From Edaphobacter sp. (GTDB lineage: Bacteria > Acidobacteriota > Terriglobia > Terriglobales > Acidobacteriaceae): 64,000 nucleotides of DNA. The notes beneath the pieces were generated by a model, which was given only the letters and a program-made list of their open reading frames with translations, made no database searches and was not told the DNA's origin. The stretch covers positions 274,449 through 338,448 of the forward strand of contig CBDICF010000002.1 in assembly GCA_965277265.1 (NCBI GenBank), given 5' to 3'. Position 1 is the first letter of the stretch, and each line of letters begins with the position of its first letter. A program made the translations under genes and the position numbers. Shown here piece after piece: positions 4,606 to 40,496 of the stretch.

Positions 4606-5337
4606 TTATAGGGAGACCTGTATCGCCTCTCCGATGAGCAGAATGACCGGAGCCGGTCCGACCGCACCGTCCTGCAGCTCGCTCAGGGTTGTAGCGTATA
4701 CCTGCTGGTCGGGAGCTGTGGCTTTGGAGACAGCGACGCAGGGGGTTTCGGGCGCGATGCCGGACGCGATCAGATCGTCCGCGAGCAGGCGGAATCTGCG
4801 GCCGGGCATGTAGATCACCAGGGTCGAGTCTTCGGGGAACGCTCCGGCCCACTTCGGTTGCAGTTCGACCTTGCCTGCGGCATGGTGGGCGGTAGCCAGA
4901 ATCAGCCTGGAGGCTGCGCTGCGGTCGGTCAAGGGCGTCTGCAAGGCCGCCGCAACGGCGAAGGCAGCGGTGATTCCGGGTACGATCTCGAAGGTTACCC
5001 CGGCGGCGCGCAGTGCGGCCATCTCTTCTCCTGCGCGACCAAAGACCAGCGGATCGCCGGACTTGAGACGCAGCACCGAGCGGCCGGACTGTGCGGCGTC
5101 GATCATGAGCACATGAATCTCCGCCTGCGTGATGCGGGGCTGGCCGCAACGCTTGCCCACCGGAGTGATGGCGGCTCCGGGGTGGGCCAGGGCAAGAATC
5201 TCGTCAGACACCAGATCGTCCGGGAGGATGACATCGGCGGTCTCCAGCAGCCGAAGCGCACGGAGCGTGAGCAGACCGGGGTCTCCCGGACCGGCTCCCA
5301 CCAGGTAGACGGTGCCCGGTTTGGCCGCGTGATTCAC
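4606..5337 (-). CDS. cobA: Uroporphyrinogen-III C-methyltransferase
   Basis: VYLVGAGPGDPGLLTLRA, RLKSGDPLVFGRAGEE, IVPGITAA tetrapyrrole methylase motifs. Confidence 0.92.
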   Translation of the reverse strand: MNHAAKPGTVYLVGAGPGDPGLLTLRALRLLETADVILPDDLVSDEILALAHPGAAITPVGKRCGQPRITQAEIHVLMIDAAQSGRSVLRLKSGDPLVFGRAGEEMAALRAAGVTFEIVPGITAAFAVAAALQTPLTDRSAASRLILATAHHAAGKVELQPKWAGAFPEDSTLVIYMPGRRFRLLADDLIASGIAPETPCVAVSKATAPDQQVYATTLSELQDGAVGPAPVILLIGEAIQVSL

Positions 5338-6008
5338 GATTTCTTCTCAGGCCGGTCCGGCTGGTGACTCGACGGGGAACCGGGCAGGGGATTGGTGAGC
5401 GCGTGTTCGCGGGCCAGCAGGCGCGAAGGGCATTGGTCGGAGCCGCAGACCTCGCGTTGGGCGAGTTGATGCAGCAGCCACTTGCGCTCCTCGTTCAACG
5501 GCTCAATCTGGGTCACCTCGCGGCGCAGGTTGCCGAGGTCGGTCAGCCAGTCGCCGGCATCGAGCGGAAGCTGAGCGTTGATCTCCTTGCGCAGACGCTG
5601 GGCCAGCGCAGGACTAGCTCCTGCCGTCGAAATGGCGATCTGCAGGTCGCCCCGGCGAACGACGGAAGGGAAATAGAAGTCGCAGAACGGCGGGTCGTCG
5701 ACGGCGTTACAGAGGATGTTCTTCTCCGTCGCCTCGGCGTAGACGGCCCGGTTGACGGAGGCTACGTCGGTTGCGGCAACCGCGAGAAAGTTTCCCGTCA
5801 GGTCCCCGGTCGCGTACACGCGCTGCTTCCAATCGATCTCTCCCGCGGCCGCCAGATCCACGATGCGAGGGCTCGCCGTTGGCGCAACCACGGTTACCCT
5901 CGCGTGAGCGGCCTGCAGGGATTCGATCTTCGATTCGGCAAGGTTGCCCGCGCCGATGACGATGCAGGGGCGCGCGGCGAGCTTGATAAAGACGGGGAAC
6001 AGGTTCAT
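5334..6008 (-). CDS. cysG: Precorrin-2 dehydrogenase / sirohydrochlorin ferrochelatase (CysG N-terminal half)
   Basis: Rossmann motif IGAGNLA, CNAVDDPPFCDFYFPSVV and ISTAGASPALA; overlaps the cobA start by 4 nt. Confidence 0.88.
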   Translation of the reverse strand: MNLFPVFIKLAARPCIVIGAGNLAESKIESLQAAHARVTVVAPTASPRIVDLAAAGEIDWKQRVYATGDLTGNFLAVAATDVASVNRAVYAEATEKNILCNAVDDPPFCDFYFPSVVRRGDLQIAISTAGASPALAQRLRKEINAQLPLDAGDWLTDLGNLRREVTQIEPLNEERKWLLHQLAQREVCGSDQCPSRLLAREHALTNPLPGSPSSHQPDRPEKKS

Positions 6009-6101
6009 GGGTTGAGCGGACCTCAGCGGCAAAAGCCGCGCATCTACAGGACAGTTGCGGCATGGCCGAAAGCCGTGCCAGTAGCAGAACACCCGGCGGG
6101 T

Positions 6102-7841
6102 CTACTCTCCCGGCGCGTGGCGTCCGGCGCCTACGGGGGCTGCGTCGCGTTCGACAGGATCGATTATGGCTCCCGCGAGCTGCGCGCGAAGGGTATCGTC
6201 GTCGGTGCGGGCAAAGTAGGCGCGCAGGTCCTCCTCCGTTTCGCGTTCAGCCAGGTAGCCGCGCAGCAGACGCTCGATCGCGTCAGGCACCTCTTCCGCG
6301 GCGGCTCGATAGCCGAGCGTACGGCCGGTGCGGGCGTATTTTCCCACCGCACCGCCTACGCAAAAATAGAAGGCATCGACCGTCCGGCCATCCTTCTTGA
6401 TCTTCTTGCCTTCGAGCCCGATGTCTGCAATCCAGTGCTGGCCGCAGCTATTGGTGCAGCCGGTGACGTGCAGCTTGATCTGCTGATCGAAGCCCGGCAA
6501 CCGCTCTTCCATCTCGCCAACCAGCCACTTCGAAAATCCCTTGGTCTCGGCGATCGCGAGCTTGCAGAACTCGGTGCCGGTGCATGCGATGGCTCCTCGC
6601 CAGAAGGCCGAGATGTCGACCTGCAGGCCGAGAGTGTTGAGCGCGATGACAAGCTCGCTGGTCCTGGCGTGGGGAACGTCGACGATGACGATGTTCTGCA
6701 TGATGGTGGTGCGGAGCTGCCCGCTGCCGTACTCCGCGGCCAACTCAGCCAGCCGCTCCAGTTGTTCTCCCGACATGCGGCCGTTCAGCACGCTTGCGCC
6801 CACCGACGAAAGGCCGGCCTGGCGCTGCGGCGTAATGCCGACGTGGTCGCGATACACATCATCGGGGACAAGGTCTTCGGACACCGGACTAGGATCGAGT
6901 TTGTAGCCCAGCTTCTCCTCCAGCGCCTCCAGGAAGGACTCCGCAGTCCAGCCGTGGCGCATGAAAAGGTACTTGATGCGGGCGCGGGTGCGATTTTCGC
7001 GCAGGGCGATCTGCTCGCGGAAGATGACGGCGCTGGCGTGAACGACGGCCAGTGCCTGGTCCTGACGGATGAACGCCGGGATGCGAACCGCGAGATGAGG
7101 TTCCGTAGAAAGACCGCCGCCGACACGCAGCGTGTAGCCGATCTCTTCCCGACCCTCGGCGTCCGTGCGCCTGATCGCGGTGAGCGCAAGGTCGTTGATC
7201 TCCGGGTAGGAGCACCACAGCGGGCACCCGGTGACCGAGATCTTGAACTTGCGCGGCAGGTTGTAGAACTCCGGGTTGGCGGTCAGGTGATGCGCAATCT
7301 CGACCGCGAGCGGCGACGCATCGATCAGTTCATGACTGTCGAGTCCGGCCAGGGGGCAGCCGGTTACGTTGCGCACCACGTCGCCGCATGCGCCCTTGGG
7401 GCTCAGGCCGACTGCGGCCAGTTCGTCCACCACATCCACCAGCGCGGTGATGGTAAGCCAGTGCAACTGGATGTTCTGGCGGGTCGTGATGTCGGCCAGG
7501 TTGCGGGCGTACTTCTTCGTGATGCGTCCGATGACGCGAAGCTGGTCACTGGTCAGCAGCCCGTTCGGCAGGCCGATGCGCATCATGAAGAACTCGGTCG
7601 CTTTGCCTTCTCCACCGACTCCGCCGGTCGCGCCCACACCGTCACCCTGGGTATAGACGCCCCACCACTTGAAGTAGAGGTTAGCCCACTCGGGCAGTAC
7701 GGAGTCGCGGCCCTCCAGCGCAAACCTGCGAACCTCTTCCCAGCCGTCCCAGGGGTTTTGGGCCAGCTTCAGCCGCTCGGACTTCTGTGCCTTCGTCTCT
7801 TTGATCGGGATATTTGTTGGGGCTGCGGGAGCAGTGCTCAT
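6102..7841 (-). CDS. sir: Ferredoxin-type sulfite/nitrite reductase hemoprotein
   Basis: TTRQNIQ, NLPRKFK, siroheme/4Fe-4S ligands ACTGTEFC and GCTNSCGQH; co-operonic with siroheme synthesis genes. Confidence 0.9.
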   Translation of the reverse strand: MSTAPAAPTNIPIKETKAQKSERLKLAQNPWDGWEEVRRFALEGRDSVLPEWANLYFKWWGVYTQGDGVGATGGVGGEGKATEFFMMRIGLPNGLLTSDQLRVIGRITKKYARNLADITTRQNIQLHWLTITALVDVVDELAAVGLSPKGACGDVVRNVTGCPLAGLDSHELIDASPLAVEIAHHLTANPEFYNLPRKFKISVTGCPLWCSYPEINDLALTAIRRTDAEGREEIGYTLRVGGGLSTEPHLAVRIPAFIRQDQALAVVHASAVIFREQIALRENRTRARIKYLFMRHGWTAESFLEALEEKLGYKLDPSPVSEDLVPDDVYRDHVGITPQRQAGLSSVGASVLNGRMSGEQLERLAELAAEYGSGQLRTTIMQNIVIVDVPHARTSELVIALNTLGLQVDISAFWRGAIACTGTEFCKLAIAETKGFSKWLVGEMEERLPGFDQQIKLHVTGCTNSCGQHWIADIGLEGKKIKKDGRTVDAFYFCVGGAVGKYARTGRTLGYRAAAEEVPDAIERLLRGYLAERETEEDLRAYFARTDDDTLRAQLAGAIIDPVERDAAPVGAGRHAPGE

Positions 7842-7880
7842 CTTGAAGATCCTTTTGAATTGCCGAAGGTTTTGGATTTC

Positions 7881-7911
7881 AGAAACAGAAAAGCCCACGG
7901 GGTTCGTGGGC
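7881..7911 (-). terminator. Intrinsic terminator (attenuator) in the leader of the sir operon
   Basis: Minus strand GCCCACG-AACCC-CGTGGGC followed by TTTTCTGTTTCT, about 40 nt upstream of the sir ATG. Confidence 0.7.
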
Positions 7912-7952
7912 GCTTGCGGCTTTGCGGAGAGGTTCAGACCCTGCGGGAAGGT

Positions 7953-8036
7953 CTATGAATCACTCGAAAGACGACGGCGCACCTCGTCGCAACAACACAG
8001 GCGACAGCTACAGCTCGCGGTGCGAAACATCGTCAT
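7953..8036 (-). CDS. Cys-rich leader peptide MTMFRTASCSCRLCCCDEVRRRLSSDS (27 aa), candidate attenuator peptide
   Basis: Translated by hand: ATG 8036 to TAG 7953, five Cys codons in eight positions; lies between the promoter and the terminator. Below the length cut-off of the ORF track. Confidence 0.65.
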   Translation of the reverse strand: MTMFRTASCSCRLCCCDEVRRRLSSDS

Positions 8037-8043
8037 AGAGTCA

Positions 8044-8073
8044 AGGCTAACCGCGCGGGGGCACCGGCGTCAA
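8044..8073 (-). promoter_or_regulatory. Sigma-70 promoter for a leaderless leader-peptide/sir transcript
   Basis: TTGACG (8073-8068), 18-nt spacer, TAGCCT (8049-8044), 7 nt, ATG 8036. Confidence 0.6.
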
Positions 8074-8156
8074 GGGGGGGCAGTCCACGCGGGATTGCGG
8101 GCGAATTGCGGGATCGGCTCGTGTGCGAACGGGGGTGGTAGAGCTTCAGGAGCAGG

Positions 8157-8831
8157 TCAGTCCGCCTCGGCGAGGGAGAATTTGTGGCGCACGTCAGAGC
8201 CTCGGACCCAGAAGATGACGTCTTCGGCGATGTTGGTGGCATGGTCGGCGGCGCGCTCCAGGTTGCGTGAGACGATGATCGCGCTCAAAGCCTGGCTGCT
8301 GACCGTAGGGTGCTGTCGCATCACCTCGACCAGTTCGCTCTGAACGTTGCGATTCATTCCGTCGATCTCGTCGTCCATGGCGAGCACGTGCTCCGCGAGC
8401 TTCGCATCGGCTTCGAGCAGGGACTGAATCGCGGAGCGGATCATCACGCCGACCTTTTCCCCCATCTCGGCGATGTCGATGGGCAGGGAGATCTCGGGTA
8501 CCACCTGCAGGGACCGCGCCCGCTGGGCAATGTTGCTTGCCTGGTCTCCTATCCGCTCCAGATCGCCGTTGATCTTAATGACGGAGAGGATGAATCGCAG
8601 GTCGATCGCCATCGGCTGCTCCTTCGCGAGGAGGTCGTAGGCCATCTGGTCGACGTCACGCTCTGCCGTGTTGATGGCCGCTTCGATCTCGATGACGTGA
8701 TCGCACAACCCGATATCGCCGCTCAGGTACGCTTCCAGCGAAAGCGAGAGAGCCTGCTGGGACAGGGCTGCCATGGCGAGCAGTTTGTCCTTGAGAGCGA
8801 CGAGTTGTTGTTGGAAATTGATGCGCGGCAT
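8157..8831 (-). CDS. phoU: Phosphate signalling complex protein PhoU
   Basis: Two helical repeats with E...D...DLERIGDQA and D..D...NLERAADHATNIAE motifs; GGAGG SD. Confidence 0.95.
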   Translation of the reverse strand: MPRINFQQQLVALKDKLLAMAALSQQALSLSLEAYLSGDIGLCDHVIEIEAAINTAERDVDQMAYDLLAKEQPMAIDLRFILSVIKINGDLERIGDQASNIAQRARSLQVVPEISLPIDIAEMGEKVGVMIRSAIQSLLEADAKLAEHVLAMDDEIDGMNRNVQSELVEVMRQHPTVSSQALSAIIVSRNLERAADHATNIAEDVIFWVRGSDVRHKFSLAEAD

Positions 8832-9132
8832 GGGGCTGATCCCTCCTCTCTATTGTGACGTAAGGAAGGCGAAGAGACGATGAATTTGTGGCGTATCCAA
8901 AAAGATGCGGCGTGAAAGCTCAGAAGGAAGCTCTGATTGGAGCTTTTGAAGCCGTTGAGATTCGGATTGAGCTGAGATCTGTAGATGGGAAGAGACAAGA
9001 ACCAGAGCGAAAGACAGCGGGTTTCTCCACTACGGTCGAAATGACGGGTTTGTGGGGCTCGGACGTGCGTCTTAAGCCGCCGGCCGCCAGCAGGATCGCA
9101 TCTGCCTCAATGTTGGTATCCTGTCCCTGCAT

Positions 9133-10755
9133 ATGCCGAAACCCATCGTCCTCACCATCCTCGACGGCTGGGGCTACCGCCCCGAAACGCACGGCAACGC
9201 CATCGCACAGGCCCGCAAGCCCATCTACGACAAGCTGCTCCGTGAGTACCCGAACACCCTGCTCCGGGCGAGCGAAGAGTTTGTCGGCCTGCCGGACGGC
9301 CAGATGGGCAACTCCGAGGTCGGCCACCTCAACCTCGGCGCGGGACGCATCGTCCGCATGGACATGACGCGCATCGATACCGCAATCATGGACGGCAGCT
9401 TCTTCACGGACCCCACGCTGACTCGCGCCTGTGAGCTGGCGAGTCAAAAGGGCCGGGCGCTCCACCTGATCGGCCTGCTGTCGGATGGCGGCGTCCACTC
9501 GCACCAGCGGCACCTGTACGCACTGCTAAGGATGGCTGCCCGGCACAAGCTTACCCGCGTCTTCGTCCACGCGTTTATGGATGGCCGCGACACCATGCCC
9601 ACCAGCGGCATCGGGTATCTGCAAGAGCTGCAGCGCAAGTTCCTGGAGTACAACGTGGGTCTCCTCTCCAGCGTATCCGGCCGTTACTTCGCCATGGACC
9701 GCGATCTCCGCTGGGAGAAGGAGAGACAGGCCTTCGACGCGATGGTCACGGGCCACCCCGCGGGAGGAACCTATGAAGGACCGATCGCACGCATTCGGGA
9801 GCTTTACAACAACGGCATCACCGACGAGTTCATTCCGCCGTTTACCTGCACCAACCCGACCGATGGAGCACCTGTCGGCCTGATCCGGGACCATGACGTC
9901 GTCATCAACTTCAACTATCGCGCCGACCGCGCTCGCCAGATTACACGGGTGCTCACGCGCAACTCCGGCCTGACCGCAGACCCGATCGGGAGCCAGGGCC
10001 ACCAGCTGCCGAAAGCCGCCGAACTGGACGCTGAGATTCCGCTGAATGTTGTCCCCACCGGGCTGCACTACGTTTGCATGACCCAGTACGACAAGAACTA
10101 CAAGCTTCCCATCGTGATCCCCCCCGAGTCGATGGACAACCTGCTCGCCAACCTGATGGCGCAGGCGAACCTGCGTAACCTGCGCGTCGCCGAGACGGAG
10201 AAATACGCCCATGTCACCTATTTTTTCAACGGCGGCATCGAGAAGCCTTTTCCGGGCGAAGACCGTGCGCTGATTCCATCGCAAAAAGTGGCCACCTACG
10301 ACCTCGCGCCCGAGATGTCCGCCGCAGGCATTGCCGATGCGGTCTGCAAAGCTGTCAACGACACGGCGTTCGACGTCATCATCGTTAACTTCGCCAATGC
10401 AGACATGGTTGGGCACTCGGGCATGATGGAGCCCACGATCCGCGCCGTGGAGACCGTCGATACCCAGCTGGGCCGCATCTATCAGGCAATCAAACAGCGC
10501 GGCGGCTCGCTGCTCGTCACCGCCGACCATGGCAACGCCGAGATGCTCATCGACCCCGCGACCGGCGGCCCGCATACCGCTCACACCACCAATCCCGTGC
10601 CGTTCCTCTACATCACGGAAGAGGGAGCTGCTCCGACGCTGCGTAACGGGGGCAGCCTGCGCGACATCTCTCCCACTCTTCTGTCGATCCTGAAGCTCGA
10701 CCAGCCCGGCCAGATGACCGGAGGCAACCTGCGGGATGCGGACAGTGTGATCTGA
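9133..10755 (+). CDS. gpmI: 2,3-bisphosphoglycerate-independent phosphoglycerate mutase
   Basis: [53 protein letters not shown]. Confidence 0.97.
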
Positions 10756-10761
10756 GAAGGT

Positions 10762-12636
10762 TTACAGGACGCGGAGGACGACTACGGTCTCGTCGTCGAA
10801 GCGGTCGGTGCCGGACTGGAAGGCGGAGACTGCCTGGAGGATGGCGTCGACCGTGGACTGCGCGGTGGGGTGGTGCTGGGCTTCGAGCAGGCGGGTGAGA
10901 CGCTCGTCGCCGAACATCTCGCCGGCAGCATTATTGGCGTCGACGATGCCGTCGGAGAAGAAGACGATGAGATCGCCGGGGCGGGTGGCGAGGGTGAATT
11001 CTTCGTATTCGGCGTTGGGGAAGAGGCCGAGAGGGAAGCCTTCGGCCTTGATGTTGCGGACGGTAGGGGACAGGGTGAGGTCGGGGTTGGCGGCGACGAA
11101 GAGCGGCTGGACGGAGCCGGCGTTCGCGATCTGGAGGGTCTGGTTGCTGTCGTCCCAGACGGCCATCAGCATCGTCACGTATTGGGAGTCGAGCTTGCGC
11201 TGCTGAAGCTGGTCGTTCAGGGCGGCGAGCATGGCGGCCGGCGAGAGGCGCTGCGGGGCGAGGGAGCGCAGGATTCCGCTGACGAGTGCGGCGTAGAGCG
11301 CCGCGGGTGCGGCCTTGCCGCTGACGTCTCCTACGGCGAGCGCGCTGCGATGGGGGCCGTAGTCCAGGAAGTCGTAGACATCGCCTCCGATGGAGCGGGC
11401 GGCGACGAATTCGGCTGCGATTTCGGCGTGTTCCAGACGCGGCGGGTTGGAGGGCATCAGGCGGAGCTGCACCTGACGGGCCATCTCCAGGTCGCGCTCC
11501 ATGCGCTGCTCTTCCTCGTGGATGCGCTGGTAAAGGCGGGCGTTGGCGATGCTGATGGCGACCTGTGCGGCGAGGGTGGAGAGCGTCCGCTGATGGTCCT
11601 CGTTGTAGTAGTTGACGCGGGTGTGTTCGAGATCGAGCACGCCGATAACCTGCCCTTTATAGACGAGGGGCACGGAGAGCTCGGAGCGGACCTCGGGGTT
11701 GGCTTCGACGTAGCGGGCGTCTTTACGGACATCGGGGGCGAGGACGGGTTCCCGGAGCTGCGCGGCGGTGCCGATAAGGCCTTCGCCGAGCGCGATGGTT
11801 CGCTCGCGGGTGACGCGTTCGCCGAAGCGGGAGGAGAAGCGATGCTCGAACTGCTGGGTGCGCTCGTTCCACAGCAGGATGGTGAACATGTGGAAGTCGA
11901 TGACGCGCTTCAGCAGATGGCCGATGCGTTCCAGCAGGTCGTCGGGATCGAGGATGCTGGTGATCTCGCGGGAGATGTCGTTGAGGACGGTGAGGGTCTG
12001 GGCCTGGCGCGAGACGCGGGTGTAGAGACGCGCGTTTTCGATCGCGATGGCCATGCGGGAGGCGACGAGCTCGAGCAGACGCTGGTGCTCGTGGGTGAAG
12101 TAGGCGGGCGCTTCGGACTGGAGGTCGAGGACGCCGATGACCTTGTTTTTCACCACCAGCGGGACGGCCAGCTCGGAGAGGACGTTGGGGTTCGCGTCAA
12201 TGTAGTTCTCGGCCTGGGTGACGTCTTCGATGAGCAGCGATTTGCGATGCAGGGCGGCCTGGCCGACAATGCCGCGGCCGAGCTTGATGCGCATGCGTTC
12301 GATCTCGGTCGTATGGCCGATCTGGAAGCGCATACGAAGGTCCTGCGAGCGGTCATTGATCAGCAGGATGGCGAAGATACGGTAGTCGATGACGGCGCGG
12401 ACTAGGTCGGCTACGCGGTGCATCAGGGTGTTCAGGTCGAGCGTGGAGTTGAGGGCGTCGGCGAGGTTGTGCAGGAACTCGACCTGCAAGGGCTCGACGC
12501 GGATCTTCGGGTCTGCGGCGTGGGGATGGAAGAGCTGGGTGCCGGTGGGGCGGTAATCGCCTTCGAAGGGGTGCTCGGGCGTGATGACTTTTAGACCGGC
12601 AGGAGGTTCGGTGCCGGGTTTGAGAGGGGGAGGCAT
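10762..12636 (-). CDS. GAF-GAF-SpoIIE (RsbU-like PP2C) phosphatase
   Basis: Two SELAVPL..VIGVLDL GAF repeats; IGGDVYDF, GDVSGK, FFSDGIVD and DDETVV PP2C motifs. Confidence 0.9.
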   Translation of the reverse strand: MPPPLKPGTEPPAGLKVITPEHPFEGDYRPTGTQLFHPHAADPKIRVEPLQVEFLHNLADALNSTLDLNTLMHRVADLVRAVIDYRIFAILLINDRSQDLRMRFQIGHTTEIERMRIKLGRGIVGQAALHRKSLLIEDVTQAENYIDANPNVLSELAVPLVVKNKVIGVLDLQSEAPAYFTHEHQRLLELVASRMAIAIENARLYTRVSRQAQTLTVLNDISREITSILDPDDLLERIGHLLKRVIDFHMFTILLWNERTQQFEHRFSSRFGERVTRERTIALGEGLIGTAAQLREPVLAPDVRKDARYVEANPEVRSELSVPLVYKGQVIGVLDLEHTRVNYYNEDHQRTLSTLAAQVAISIANARLYQRIHEEEQRMERDLEMARQVQLRLMPSNPPRLEHAEIAAEFVAARSIGGDVYDFLDYGPHRSALAVGDVSGKAAPAALYAALVSGILRSLAPQRLSPAAMLAALNDQLQQRKLDSQYVTMLMAVWDDSNQTLQIANAGSVQPLFVAANPDLTLSPTVRNIKAEGFPLGLFPNAEYEEFTLATRPGDLIVFFSDGIVDANNAAGEMFGDERLTRLLEAQHHPTAQSTVDAILQAVSAFQSGTDRFDDETVVVLRVL

Positions 12637-37665: not shown

Positions 37666-38844
37666 TCAGCGGGCGCTTGCGAGTTGGCCGGCGAAGGCGT
37701 CCAGGGAGAGGCTGCGAAGGAGATTGCGGCGTAGACCGCTCTGCACCTGATCGAGGGCGCGGGAGGCTTGCTCGATCCACTGGAACGAGAGGGATTGCGA
37801 GATACGTTCGAGTTCGGCGCGGAGATCGGTATTGCGGAGGAGTTCGGGAGTGCCGGCACCGAGAAGAAGGATATCTTCGAGGAGCAGAGAGAGGCTGCGG
37901 AGAAGCGCGGCGGTCTTCTGTTGGCCTTCGGCTCCGGCGCGGTAGGTTTCAGTCATTTTGAAGAGGGCGGTGTGGTCGGGCTCCGATGAGCCAGTGCTGC
38001 CCGCGGCGGCGTTGCGTAGGAAGATCAATGCGTCGGCGCGGGCGGCGGTGTAGGCGGCGAGGTCGAAGCCGATAGCCTTCCCGGCGGCTCCCTGAGCGAG
38101 GCGGGCGATAAGGGTGCGCTGCTGGGGCGGAACGTCGGGGCGGCGGTCGGCGAGGAGCATCTCGATCTCTTCGACCGGCAGGGCTCCAAGACGGACGGTA
38201 GCGCAACGGGAGCGAATGGTTGGGAGTAGTTCGCCGGGGTTTTCGGCGAGGATGATGATGTGGACGGTGGGCGGGGGCTCTTCGAGGACCTTGAGGAGGG
38301 AGTTGGCGGCTTCCTTCATCATGTTGGCGGCTGTCAGGATGAAGATCTTGCGGGGCGCTTCGCTGGGGAGGTAATGCGAGCGCTGAATGACGGTGCGAAC
38401 CTGGCCGAGTTTGATGAGGAGCTGCGGAGGGTCGGGCGGGATGATGAGGACGTCGGGGTGGGGCTGGATGAGAACGCGGGTCTCTTTTTTGTCGGTCTCG
38501 CGAAGCTCTTCGCGGGCGGCTACGGCTTTGTCGACCTCGTCTTCGAGGCTGGCGGCGGAGGCGATACGGGTGCAGTTATGGCAGACACCGCAGAAGCTGG
38601 CGAGGGACTGGCCATTGGACCCGAGGGCTTCGCTGTAGGAGCGGAGCTCGCGCGGCTGGCGTTCGCATTGGACGGCCATGCTGAGCATGAGGGCGAGGGT
38701 ATATTTTCCGGCTCCACTGGGTCCGCTGAGGATGAGGGAGGAAGGCAACCGCCGGGCGGCGATAGCGGTGCGGAGGTGCTCGATGGCAGTCGTGTTGCCG
38801 AGGAAATCGTTGAAGGTGGCGGGAAGGGCGGTCGGGCTAGACAC
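37666..38844 (-). CDS. holB: DNA polymerase III subunit delta-prime
   Basis: GPSGAGK, C..C..C Zn module, HPDV, AANSLLKVLEEPP, LLPTIRSRC; GTG 38844 preceded by AGGAG. Confidence 0.85.
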   Translation of the reverse strand: MSSPTALPATFNDFLGNTTAIEHLRTAIAARRLPSSLILSGPSGAGKYTLALMLSMAVQCERQPRELRSYSEALGSNGQSLASFCGVCHNCTRIASAASLEDEVDKAVAAREELRETDKKETRVLIQPHPDVLIIPPDPPQLLIKLGQVRTVIQRSHYLPSEAPRKIFILTAANMMKEAANSLLKVLEEPPPTVHIIILAENPGELLPTIRSRCATVRLGALPVEEIEMLLADRRPDVPPQQRTLIARLAQGAAGKAIGFDLAAYTAARADALIFLRNAAAGSTGSSEPDHTALFKMTETYRAGAEGQQKTAALLRSLSLLLEDILLLGAGTPELLRNTDLRAELERISQSLSFQWIEQASRALDQVQSGLRRNLLRSLSLDAFAGQLASAR

Positions 38845-39140
38845 GGAGCGGCTCCTCATCCTCTAGGGTAAATGGAGTGCGCGATCCGAGAGCGCTCGGC
38901 GTGGCCGGATGCGATGTGTCACGAACTTTCAAACGAATCTTCGCCCGGTTTCCGCCCGCAGCCAAGCTGAAACGTAAGAACAACAGCAGCAACTGCCACA
39001 TTCCGGTTCGCAAAGGAAATGAGTTATGGACCGGAACATAGAAATCTTCAACGTCTGCGGACCGGTTGCTGGCGTACAAATGAAGTGGGTTAATATTTGG
39101 TGGGTTCGCGACCCGCGGAACTGTGCGCGATGTCGAGGCG

Positions 39141-40496
39141 ATGTCCGAATCGGAGAGGCTCTTTTTGAAATTTCAGACGAGTGAAACAGTTCCGGGGCAC
39201 GATCCGGAGAGGGTGCTGAATGCACTAGAGGTGGCTCTGCGCAATACTTTCGAGGAGGTGTCTCGGGAGGGTGCCCGCCTTTCGGTGCGCGGGTTGGGGC
39301 CTTCGCCGCGAAGGGTGAACCTTCAGGATGTGACGGAGCTCTCAGTCGAAGCGATGCAGGGAGGATCTGTAATCAAAGCGGATATGAGCTTTCAAGCTTC
39401 GGCGCTGCTGGGGGATATGCCGCAGAACGAACTGGTGCGGTCGAAGCTGGAGGGCGTATTCCAGCAGATGAAGGCACAGCTGGATCTGGAGACCATAAGG
39501 ACTCCGGTCGTTGCGGCGAACGGGGCAGGTAGTCTGGGTGATCCTTCGGGGAGCGAAGCGGCTACGACTGCGGTTGGAAAGGGTGTCGAGGCTCAACCCG
39601 TGGTGATGGTCGTGCCACCGGCTGAGGATGTGACGGATGAGGATGGTTCGAACGGTGTAATCGAGACGGTGCCCGAAGCCGTGGAGGTAGTCCGGAGCGC
39701 GAAGACGCCGGATTGGGGTGCTGCGCCAGCGCTCGAAGTGGTGAAGCCCGATGTGACGAAACATCCCCTGCGGAGGGTCGAAATGACGAAGCCCGATGTG
39801 GCCAATGAGGACGTCACGAAAACCGCTGCGGTGGAGACCCAGGTCGCGAACTTCAGTCGTGCGGGGTCTTCCGACTGGGTCGTCGATTCCTCGGTGGAAG
39901 CCGCGGGGATGGAGGAGGAGTCCGGGTGGAGCTTTGGGGAGCGGCTTGGCTTAGCTTTCGCTGTACTGATCCTGGTCGTGCTTTCGGCTGCGGGTGCGTA
40001 TCTGTTCTGGGGACGTTATCAGACGACAGCGGAAAGAAATGCCGTCGCGATTTCCCAGAGAAAAGCAGCAGATGCGTCCCGCATGGCCGCAGCTTCTGCC
40101 GGCGCGGGGCACATGGGTAGCGATTTGACGGATCCCAAGGCATGGGTGGAGAAGTGGGGCGATGCGATGCGGTCGAGTGACGCTGCGACACAGGCTTCGT
40201 TCTACGCCATTCCGGTTTCTCGCTATTTATTGAAGTGGAATGTGAGCAGGGAAGAACTGGTGAAAGAAAAGCAAGCGGCGATCAATGCCCGAAAGGGATT
40301 GTGGACAGTGCGGCTGGAGAAGATTGTGGTGGAGAAGGAGACGGCTTCGGATGCTACTGTTCGGCTGGTAAAGCATTCGATGGTGCAGGTCCTGCCGTAC
40401 AAGATCTCGGAGCGGTGGGTCAAGACGAGGCTGCAGCTAAAACGGATAGATGGGCGGTGGAAGATCATTTCGGAACGCGACATTCTGCCTGATTGA
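39141..40496 (+). CDS. Membrane protein: N-terminal domain, acidic linker, one TM helix, C-terminal NTF2-like domain
   Basis: TM LGLAFAVLILVVLSAAGAYLFW; C-terminal ..RLQLKRIDGRWKIISE typical of the NTF2 fold. Confidence 0.7.
   Translation: MSESERLFLKFQTSETVPGHDPERVLNALEVALRNTFEEVSREGARLSVRGLGPSPRRVNLQDVTELSVEAMQGGSVIKADMSFQASALLGDMPQNELVRSKLEGVFQQMKAQLDLETIRTPVVAANGAGSLGDPSGSEAATTAVGKGVEAQPVVMVVPPAEDVTDEDGSNGVIETVPEAVEVVRSAKTPDWGAAPALEVVKPDVTKHPLRRVEMTKPDVANEDVTKTAAVETQVANFSRAGSSDWVVDSSVEAAGMEEESGWSFGERLGLAFAVLILVVLSAAGAYLFWGRYQTTAERNAVAISQRKAADASRMAAASAGAGHMGSDLTDPKAWVEKWGDAMRSSDAATQASFYAIPVSRYLLKWNVSREELVKEKQAAINARKGLWTVRLEKIVVEKETASDATVRLVKHSMVQVLPYKISERWVKTRLQLKRIDGRWKIISERDILPD

Follow-up and report, generated by a model that had tools for sequence, protein, structure and literature searches.

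A probable cysteine-responsive transcription attenuator built on a leaderless poly-Cys leader upstream of the sulfite reductase and siroheme genes in Edaphobacter and related Acidobacteria

Attenuation of transcription by leader peptides has stood in the textbooks ever since the work on trp and is as such no new principle, and the pathway in which sulfite reductase (Sir) together with siroheme synthesis provides sulfide for the synthesis of cysteine is equally well established. Acidobacteria are a phylum abundant in soils, and their gene regulation is, to our knowledge, almost unknown. Here we describe the region that precedes the sulfite reductase gene, sir, in a stretch of 64,000 nucleotides (nt) of DNA from Edaphobacter sp. 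(contig CBDICF010000002.1, positions 274,449 to 338,448). This whole stretch is called the window below, and all coordinates are those of the window, with the leader and the sir operon lying on its minus strand. A first-pass annotation made from the letters alone had interpreted a short, cysteine-rich open reading frame (ORF) followed by a terminator as a cysteine-sensing attenuator, and the present analyses support that interpretation in silico: the region is probably a ribosome-mediated, cysteine-responsive transcription attenuator of sir-cysG-cobA that is built on a leaderless leader ORF.

As in the trp, his, leu, thr, pheA and ilv attenuators of Escherichia coli and Salmonella, an intrinsic terminator precedes the first structural gene, and alternative pairings of the 1:2, 2:3 and 3:4 kind would be chosen by the position of the ribosome, with the stop codon of the leader ORF in or next to region 2. 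Unlike in those trp-type attenuators, cysteine would here be the amino acid sensed, the leader ORF is predicted to be leaderless, with neither a 5' untranslated region nor a Shine-Dalgarno sequence, the genes concerned encode sulfite reductase and siroheme enzymes, and the host belongs to Acidobacteriota. There is also no sequence homology to the trp-type leaders and no match to an Rfam leader, with a cmscan of positions 7500-8500 on both strands against Rfam 15 giving zero matches at E values up to 1, and the antiterminator of this particular locus is weak.

In mycobacteria, leaderless poly-Cys small ORFs (sORFs) that form a 'Cys ribulon' respond to cysteine (Canestrari et al. 2020, bioRxiv 10.1101/834739 / Mol Microbiol 114:93), as the first-pass annotation had correctly stated. 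The leader studied here is like them in that a putatively leaderless sORF which annotation has missed, and which contains consecutive Cys codons, forms the first cistron of a cysteine- or sulfur-related operon, and in that pausing of ribosomes on the Cys codons is proposed to relieve a downstream repression. The mycobacterial Ms5788A acts on translation, by means of a very stable duplex in which its poly-Cys tract pairs with the downstream Shine-Dalgarno sequence, and has no intrinsic terminator (10.1101/834739), whereas what is conserved in the present leader is a terminator of canonical form together with a competing helix. In mycobacteria the Cys tracts are furthermore C-terminal, while here the last Cys codon is followed by a median of 7 codons, which carry the candidate antiterminator strand. 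No stable pairing between the Cys tract and the AAGGA of sir (7854-7850) was seen in the centroid fold, and since sequestration of the Shine-Dalgarno sequence is thus lacking, the leader is not counted as a member of the mycobacterial family. With hosts in different phyla and no similarity in sequence, the two kinds of poly-Cys sORF have evidently arisen independently.

Two further described systems have to be compared. The uORFC-8-2 motif found before cysS in Rhodobacterales is a predicted ribosome-mediated attenuator (Brewer et al. 2021, PMC8632094) whose conserved tandem Cys codons lie in one stem, with a terminator stem and a run of U coming after it. It controls cysteinyl-tRNA synthetase, has two Cys codons at the fixed positions 14-15, was not reported to be leaderless and is alphaproteobacterial; here the downstream gene is sir, the taxon is Acidobacteriaceae, and sequence and structure are unrelated to those of the motif. 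Candidate Cys leader peptides with runs of Cys codons have also been proposed by comparative genomics for the cys and cbs operons of actinobacteria (Seliverstov et al. 2005, PMC1262725). For those leaders no terminator or conserved hairpin was found and dependence on Rho was proposed, whereas the terminator is the best-conserved RNA element of the leader described here. Full-text literature searches found no description of such a cysteine leader for Acidobacteria, in line with the first-pass annotation, whose author had been aware of none. What is new is the combination of a leaderless design with a transcriptional output, both putative, in a leader that is well conserved and has escaped annotation.

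All of the sequence elements that the first-pass annotation had named (the hexamers, the 27-codon ORF, the hairpins and the U-tract) were found base for base on the minus strand. They lie in a spacer of 315 nt between the phoU stop codon (8157) and the sir start codon (ATG at 7841), as follows, in the order of transcription:

8073-8068, minus strand: -35 hexamer TTGACG, as read in the sequence, with an 18-nt spacer to the -10 hexamer.
8049-8044, minus strand: -10 hexamer TAGCCT (TAnnnT), 7 nt before the ATG at 8036.
8036..7953, minus strand: putatively leaderless leader ORF of 27 codons plus stop, MTMFRTASCSCRLCCCDEVRRRLSSDS, with the transcription start predicted at or next to A8036.
8028..8034, minus strand: 5' strand of the '1:2' helix, GACGATG, overlapping the start codon, as seen in minimum free energy (MFE) folds.
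7989..8012, minus strand: Cys codons (Cys9, Cys11 and Cys14-16), the proposed stalling site.
7970..7983, minus strand: region 2, with GGTGCGC (7983-7977) as candidate antiterminator strand and CGTCGTC (7976-7970) as partner of the 5' end.
7936..7954, minus strand: stop-codon hairpin, AGACC (7954-7950) with GGTCT (7940-7936), the tip of the candidate antiterminator hairpin.
7908..7923, minus strand: candidate antiterminator 3' strand, AAAG (7923-7920) with CTTT (7970-7967) and GCGCCC (7913-7908) with GGTGCGC.
7881..7911, minus strand: intrinsic terminator GCCCACG-AACCC-CGTGGGC plus U-tract, with arms at 7911-7905 and 7899-7893.
7850..7854, minus strand: Shine-Dalgarno sequence of sir, AAGGA, conserved in the alignment of close relatives and not stably paired in the centroid fold.

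The five Cys codons of the leader ORF fall within 8 codons (TGT at 8012-8010, 8006-8004, 7997-7995 and 7994-7992, TGC at 7991-7989), with codons 14-16 forming a consecutive CCC. The terminator, having a 7-bp GC stem followed by the U-tract TTTTCTGTTTCT at 7892-7881, was the sole terminator-like site found by a scan of positions 7600-8400 and its hairpin alone reaches -12.5 kcal/mol; the candidate antiterminator 3' strand overlaps the first 4 nt of its 5' arm. Cysteine-rich ORFs of this kind hardly arise by chance. When the 315-nt spacer was shuffled with preservation of dinucleotides, counting ATG ORFs of 8-60 codons, an ORF with at least 5 Cys within 8 codons arose twice in 20,000 shuffles (P = 1e-4), the antisense strand of 80 related loci held one such ORF in 559 kb, and two were found in the whole window on both strands.

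The first-pass annotation had proposed that regions upstream of sir orthologues be compared, and this comparison carries most of the argument. With the Sir protein, 80 loci were fetched from species-representative genomes and 80 from metagenomes, in addition to 10 of the closest contigs, and a single pipeline run covered the window and 160 scanned loci (L001-L160), giving 155 evaluable loci. These came from Granulicella, Tunturiibacter, Edaphobacter, Terracidiphilus, Silvibacterium, Terriglobus, other Acidobacteriaceae and Terriglobales, and metagenome-assembled genomes (MAGs) of 'Candidatus Acidiferrales', with Sir identities of 58-90%. The window itself is nearest to Tunturiibacter- and Edaphobacter-type genomes, and the protein matches listed for its Sir were 81-90% identical. 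A Cys-containing sORF lay directly upstream of sir in 146 of the 155 loci, of which 137 had 3 or more Cys per 8 codons and 106 had 4 or more, and a stable hairpin with a U-tract followed between the sORF stop codon and sir in 139 of these 146, at a median of 29 nt after the stop. For the latter count a fold-based search was used, a simple scanner having missed bulged and long-loop forms of the terminator.

The peptides encoded by the sORFs are 12-59 codons long (median 25), as exemplified by MEGMTCCRCCMLLARQR, MSICPIPAMCCACCCALRRTCG and MSSFSNLRQFCLCACCCCACVCSGAGRLLT, and Cys makes up 23% of all residues. Outside the Cys run no feature of the peptide is kept family-wide, and the number and spacing of the Cys codons vary between loci, always in frame. 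Such freedom to diverge everywhere except in the Cys run is the signature of a leader peptide and not of a functional protein. None of the 10 annotated close contigs carried a gene call for the sORF. With regard to the neighbouring genes, phoU was the upstream neighbour in 21 of the 140 loci with enough flank and the sORF was kept in 115 of the other 119, so that the leader goes with sir and not with phoU. Downstream of sir, siroheme synthase follows in nearly all loci with enough flank, and the gene order sir-cysG-cobA was retained in 65 of the 71 loci with full downstream flank. In the window, where Pfam confirmed the Sir, CysG-type and CobA assignments of the first-pass annotation, the genes are:

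8157-8831, minus strand: phoU, the upstream neighbour (Pfam PhoU).
6102..7841, minus strand: sir, ferredoxin-type sulfite reductase (Pfam NIR_SIR and NIR_SIR_ferr), first gene of the regulated set, whose homologues carry the name sulfite reductase (ferredoxin).
5334..6092, minus strand: siroheme synthase of the N-terminal type, precorrin-2 dehydrogenase / ferrochelatase (Pfam NAD_binding_7 and Sirohm_synth_M).
4606..5337, minus strand: uroporphyrinogen-III methyltransferase of the cobA/cysG-C type (Pfam TP_methylase), last gene of the inferred operon.

A few single loci and records deserve mention beside these counts. At one locus (L050) the leader, MCCCRPCCVRSRVEVHS at 1674-1727, lies 1.3 kb upstream of sir, before an inserted membrane-protein gene, and at another (L019, ~2600-2980) a gene resembling cysH, for phosphoadenosine phosphosulfate reductase, ends directly before sir with no leader between. 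Three contigs labelled Rhodanobacteraceae, Acetobacteraceae and 'Candidatus Dormiibacterota' (L007, L024 and L066) carry a sir of the Acidobacteriaceae type (63-77% identity), L007 and L066 with a typical acidobacterial poly-Cys leader and L024 with the promoter and a broken Cys run; these contigs are probably mis-binned. Among the relatives with the same leader are the culturable Tunturiibacter psychrotolerans X4BP1 (L009) and Granulicella rosea DSM 18704 (L004). Some NCBI records of the sulfite reductase (proteins P0050 and P0053) name it 'precorrin-3B synthase' despite its NIR_SIR domains and siroheme neighbours, which looks like an annotation error inherited from CobG-like proteins.

The promoter and the reading frame of the sORF are conserved together. 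A pair of -35 and -10 hexamers ending 4-9 nt, and mostly 6-7 nt, before the ATG of the sORF was found in 115 of the 146 loci, as compared with 0.6% of all ATGs in the loci. Among the first 64 leaders a TAnnnT hexamer was present in 56, of which 47 had a good -35 hexamer as well; in these 47 the gap from the -10 hexamer to the ATG was 6 nt in 27 cases and 7 nt in 14, and among the scored leaders the spacer between the hexamers was 17 nt in 36 loci and 18 nt in 9, with a family range of 16-19 for hexamers of the TTG type at -35. CTTGACG is invariant among the 18 closest relatives. A -10 hexamer placed only 4-9 nt before the ATG leaves no room for a Shine-Dalgarno sequence of the sORF. When the ATG was picked from the promoter pattern alone and the frame of the TGY cluster was then read, the cluster was in frame 0 at 90 of 90 loci (p = 1e-43), which excludes a UGUUGU motif acting purely at the level of RNA and argues for a transcript that has the ATG at its 5' end and in which the TGY run is translated as Cys. 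For the window, the position of the promoter predicts a transcription start at or next to A8036. Predictions in silico for three acidobacterial genomes have put the proportion of leaderless genes at 10-19% (PMC3160421).

Codon choice within the Cys run is also distinctive. TGT makes up 67% of the Cys codons of the leaders (510/764) as against 10% in the adjacent sir genes (149/1435), a bias that fits selection for slow (wobble) decoding, for RNA pairing by means of U-containing helices, or for both.

Turning to RNA structure, the ribosome-free MFE fold of the leader pairs the 5' half of the sORF including its start codon (nt 2-35) with nt 46-66 (GCGACGAGGUGCGCCGUCGUC), and the terminator forms. 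This contains the '1:2' helix GACGAUG:CGUCGUC, joining window positions 8028-8034 with 7970-7976. A start-codon helix, GGCGAU:GUCGCC, is likewise found in 17 close relatives (alignment A2, columns 3-8 with 65-70), where it is 78% paired and 3 pairs are changed on both sides, and in the full-length leader such pairing would hide the start codon, which could limit initiation to the first, co-transcriptional ribosome. Region 2 contains GTGCGCCGTCGCC, conserved among the close relatives, with a GCGC:GCGC helix that is 84% paired. When a ribosome is placed on the Cys codons at a stage before synthesis of the terminator 3' arm, the MFE fold joins region 2 to the stop-codon hairpin and to AAAG...GCGC in a long imperfect hairpin, the base of which overlaps the 5' arm of the terminator, with GCGC paired to the base of that arm.

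Several parts of this long hairpin recur in the relatives with changed sequence. The stop-codon hairpin appears at the same place as GACUUA/UAAGUC, with both-side changes at 4 of 5 pairs, and the inner helix CUUUGC:GCAAAG is 71% paired with one compensatory pair, variants such as UGUC:GACA and CUCU:AGAG being evident by eye. In the 17 closest relatives (A2) the long hairpin was 78% paired, as compared with 26-48% in slid registers, with 5 pairs changed on both sides, and the terminator was 97.5% paired. An alignment of 28 distant relatives (A3) gave a helix CUCUGGCG..GGG : CCC..CGCCAGAG that was 90% paired, as compared with 33-52% in slid registers, and whose outer pairs vary as CG/UA/UG and UA/AU; none of 500 shuffles matched its observed percentage paired, its both-side-change cells or its covariation score, and the terminator of these relatives was 94% paired. 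Across the loci, the segment that follows the Cys codons pairs with the terminator 5' arm of its own locus 2.8 kcal/mol better than does the segment of an unrelated locus (per locus, p = 1e-9; over 23 clusters, p = 0.015), and a reversed control was not significant. Covariation in the relatives thus supports an antiterminator that would be mutually exclusive with the terminator; in the window itself the antiterminator is a weak candidate.

On the anatomy, conservation, reading frame and covariation observed here, we infer a course of events that runs from transcription start to cysteine response. Transcription would begin at or next to the A of the ATG at 8036, as the promoter position suggests, and since the transcript would then begin with AUG, a ribosome could load at its 5' end while the RNA is still being made and translate the 27-codon ORF close behind the RNA polymerase. 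With Cys-tRNA(Cys) plentiful, the ribosome would pass the five Cys codons and reach the stop codon, unwinding region 2 and the stop-codon hairpin, whereupon the terminator 5' arm would be free, GCCCACG/CGTGGGC would form and transcription would end at about 7892-7881, before sir. If no ribosome were present, the 5' half of the sORF would pair with region 2 and the terminator would form as well. When charged tRNA(Cys) is scarce, the ribosome would stall at Cys codons 9-16 and leave region 2 (GGUGCGCC...CUUU) free ahead of it; the freed region 2, the stop-codon hairpin and AAAG...GCGCCC could then combine in the long imperfect hairpin, the terminator 5' arm would be sequestered at its base, and the polymerase would read through into sir, cysG and cobA, yielding more sulfide for cysteine synthesis.

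The energetics agree with this course in direction. The antiterminator state was computed to be less stable than the terminator by 12-14.5 kcal/mol if the ribosome was absent or stood at the stop codon; placing it on the Cys codons reduced the difference to 5-9 kcal/mol, which is a change in the right direction and no equilibrium switch. The first-pass annotation had suggested folding alternative structures; such folds show the '1:2' helix and the stalled-ribosome hairpin, with the terminator still favoured at equilibrium. When the pairing of region 2 with the terminator arm was compared with shuffled sequences locus by locus, the mean z was -1.1, and only 28% of the loci had p < 0.05.

A number of observations weigh against a cysteine-responsive attenuator. 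With regard to RNA structure, partition functions computed with a ribosome mask on the Cys codons, on the stop codon or absent predicted the terminator in nearly all ribosome states, here and in the family (median 0.92-0.97); given that the terminator wins at equilibrium, a real switch would have to be a kinetic one, as it is in the classical systems. RNAalifold on 7 relatives gave just 4 pairs, those of the GCGC:GCGC helix, and the structures that were tested came from members of the same alignments on which they were tested. The pairing that the first-pass annotation had tentatively offered as antiterminator, GGTGCGC with GCGCCC, did turn out as the best duplex in the window by RNAduplex (GG(U)GCGC:GCGCCC, 7983-7977 with 7913-7908, -10.4 kcal/mol), but it ranked 0.53 against unrelated leaders, i.e. 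no better than these, and forcing the antiterminator of the window leaves a residual 5-bp terminator.

Other observations of this kind concern the promoter, the translation and the conservation of the leader. A generic sigma-70 scan did not call the leader promoter, since TAGCCT matches the -10 consensus poorly, and the case for this promoter as a real one is made by its conservation and not by the hexamer match. Leaderless translation in Acidobacteria has so far just been predicted in silico (PMC3160421). Some relatives have only 2 Cys in the leader, and in three loci (L005, L024 and L047) the Cys run has been lost, with promoter and terminator retained. Finally, the loci compared are phylogenetically related and come mostly from MAGs and metagenomes, so that the counts overstate the number of independent events. 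The broken Cys runs read TGT TGA in L024 and TGT TGG in L047 and are out of frame in L005; these three loci could be natural loss-of-sensing variants and as such of use as controls.

Alternative explanations of the leader, taken together, appear to carry little weight against the comparative data. The one that survives best, unlikely as we judge it, holds that the sORF does sense cysteine and that its main output is translational, in the manner of Ms5788A, with a stalled ribosome opening an RNA fold in which the Shine-Dalgarno sequence of sir is buried, and with the terminator playing a minor part or none. The sole poly-Cys leaderless sORF that has been dissected experimentally works in this way (10.1101/834739), and one whole-leader MFE fold pairs part of the 3' end of the sORF with the AAGGAUCUUC region. 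That pairing is absent from the centroid fold, and it is also absent from the constrained folds, which stop before the Shine-Dalgarno sequence and so cannot address it. More telling are the canonical GC hairpin and U-tract standing between sORF and sir in 139 of 146 loci, the location of the sir Shine-Dalgarno sequence at a median of 34.5 nt downstream of the terminator in A-rich sequence, and the covariation that ties the 3' segment of the sORF to the terminator arm and not to the Shine-Dalgarno sequence.

Improbable, too, is a functional cysteine-rich micropeptide, metal- or redox-active or the precursor of a modified peptide, that would be co-expressed with sir without sensing anything. Conservation of the frame, the start and the Cys cluster would be expected of such a peptide, and some subgroups keep residues other than Cys, as in CRMCCCD.VRRRL; these subgroup-conserved residues coincide, however, with nucleotides that pair in the RNA helices, while lengths range from 12 to 59 codons and the sequence beyond the Cys run is unconstrained family-wide. 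Preference for the rare codon TGT, a terminator that separates the sORF from sir (in 139 of 146 loci) and the absence of modification or export genes alongside in the loci examined also speak against a micropeptide. We find it just as hard to credit that the attenuator would report general translation stress, or the sulfur or redox state, instead of charged tRNA(Cys) specifically, any slowdown of translation giving read-through. Region 2 would indeed be freed by a stall anywhere in the 5' half of the ORF, and antibiotic-responsive leader-ORF attenuators exist (discussed in 10.1101/834739), but the Cys run, with its 23% of residues, is the sole universally conserved coding feature and the regulated genes make sulfide for cysteine.

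Still less probable is an action in trans on the conserved UGUUGU-rich RNA with its helices, whether by an RNA-binding protein, by a small RNA or, as in a riboswitch, by a small-molecule ligand, translation of the ORF being irrelevant. Nucleotide conservation of CCUGUUGUCGC and the segment following it is high within subgroups, as a target of that kind would have it; yet there was no match to Rfam even at E = 1, the promoter-defined ATG has the TGY run in its frame at 90 of 90 loci, and the Cys codons stay in frame although their number and spacing vary. The frame is moreover always open to a stop codon before the terminator, and a frame so kept open, with TGY in frame, is more than a motif acting only as RNA would require. 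That the hairpin and U-tract are merely the phoU terminator, with the hexamers and the Cys-rich ORF as chance features of a GC-rich spacer, we reject as hardly credible: phoU does end 245 nt upstream of the hairpin on the same strand with no other terminator seen behind it, and the -10 hexamer is a weak match, but a P of about 1e-4 for the ORF alone, the presence of the module before sir at 115 loci with a different upstream gene, and the conserved promoter spacing and reading frame contradict it.

Should a cysteine-responsive attenuator indeed operate here, it would be the first RNA-level control element to be assigned to sulfur assimilation in Acidobacteria, it would give comparative evidence for a regulatory use of leaderless translation in that phylum, and it would be a clean convergence with the mycobacterial cysteine sensors, having transcription as its output. 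It would also add a conserved small ORF lacking annotation in about 140 genomes and MAGs, and an easily testable reporter system, with Cys codons, start codon and terminator arms all open to separate mutation, whereby the leader opens acidobacterial gene regulation to direct experiment. A wider view, to which we lean only somewhat more than to its opposite, is that control of sulfate assimilation throughout Terriglobia is exerted by an attenuator coupled to leaderless translation, convergent with the mycobacterial sensor, in which the first ribosome at the 5' AUG reads a run of rare UGU codons and decides upon termination 100 nt further on; this leader might then be one member of a genome-wide Cys 'ribulon'.

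Elsewhere in the window, the second ORF with at least 5 Cys per 8 codons, at 39039..38929 (minus strand; MFRSITHFLCEPECGSCCCCSYVSAWLRAETGRRFV), sits 70 nt upstream of the DNA polymerase III delta' gene (37666-38859, PF13177). It was rejected as part of the system, being without a -10 hexamer at leaderless spacing and without a terminator and preceding a gene for DNA polymerase III delta', and probably arose by chance. Three sizeable ORFs, at 8920-9513 and 9526-10584 (minus strand) and 39123-40496 (plus strand), encoding 197, 352 and 457 amino acids, had no Pfam match; the first two of them separate phoU from a gene for a GAF-SpoIIE phosphatase (10762-12636). An 864-codon open frame at 5364-7958 (plus strand), antisense to sir and cysG, is a shadow ORF of GC-rich DNA and not a gene.

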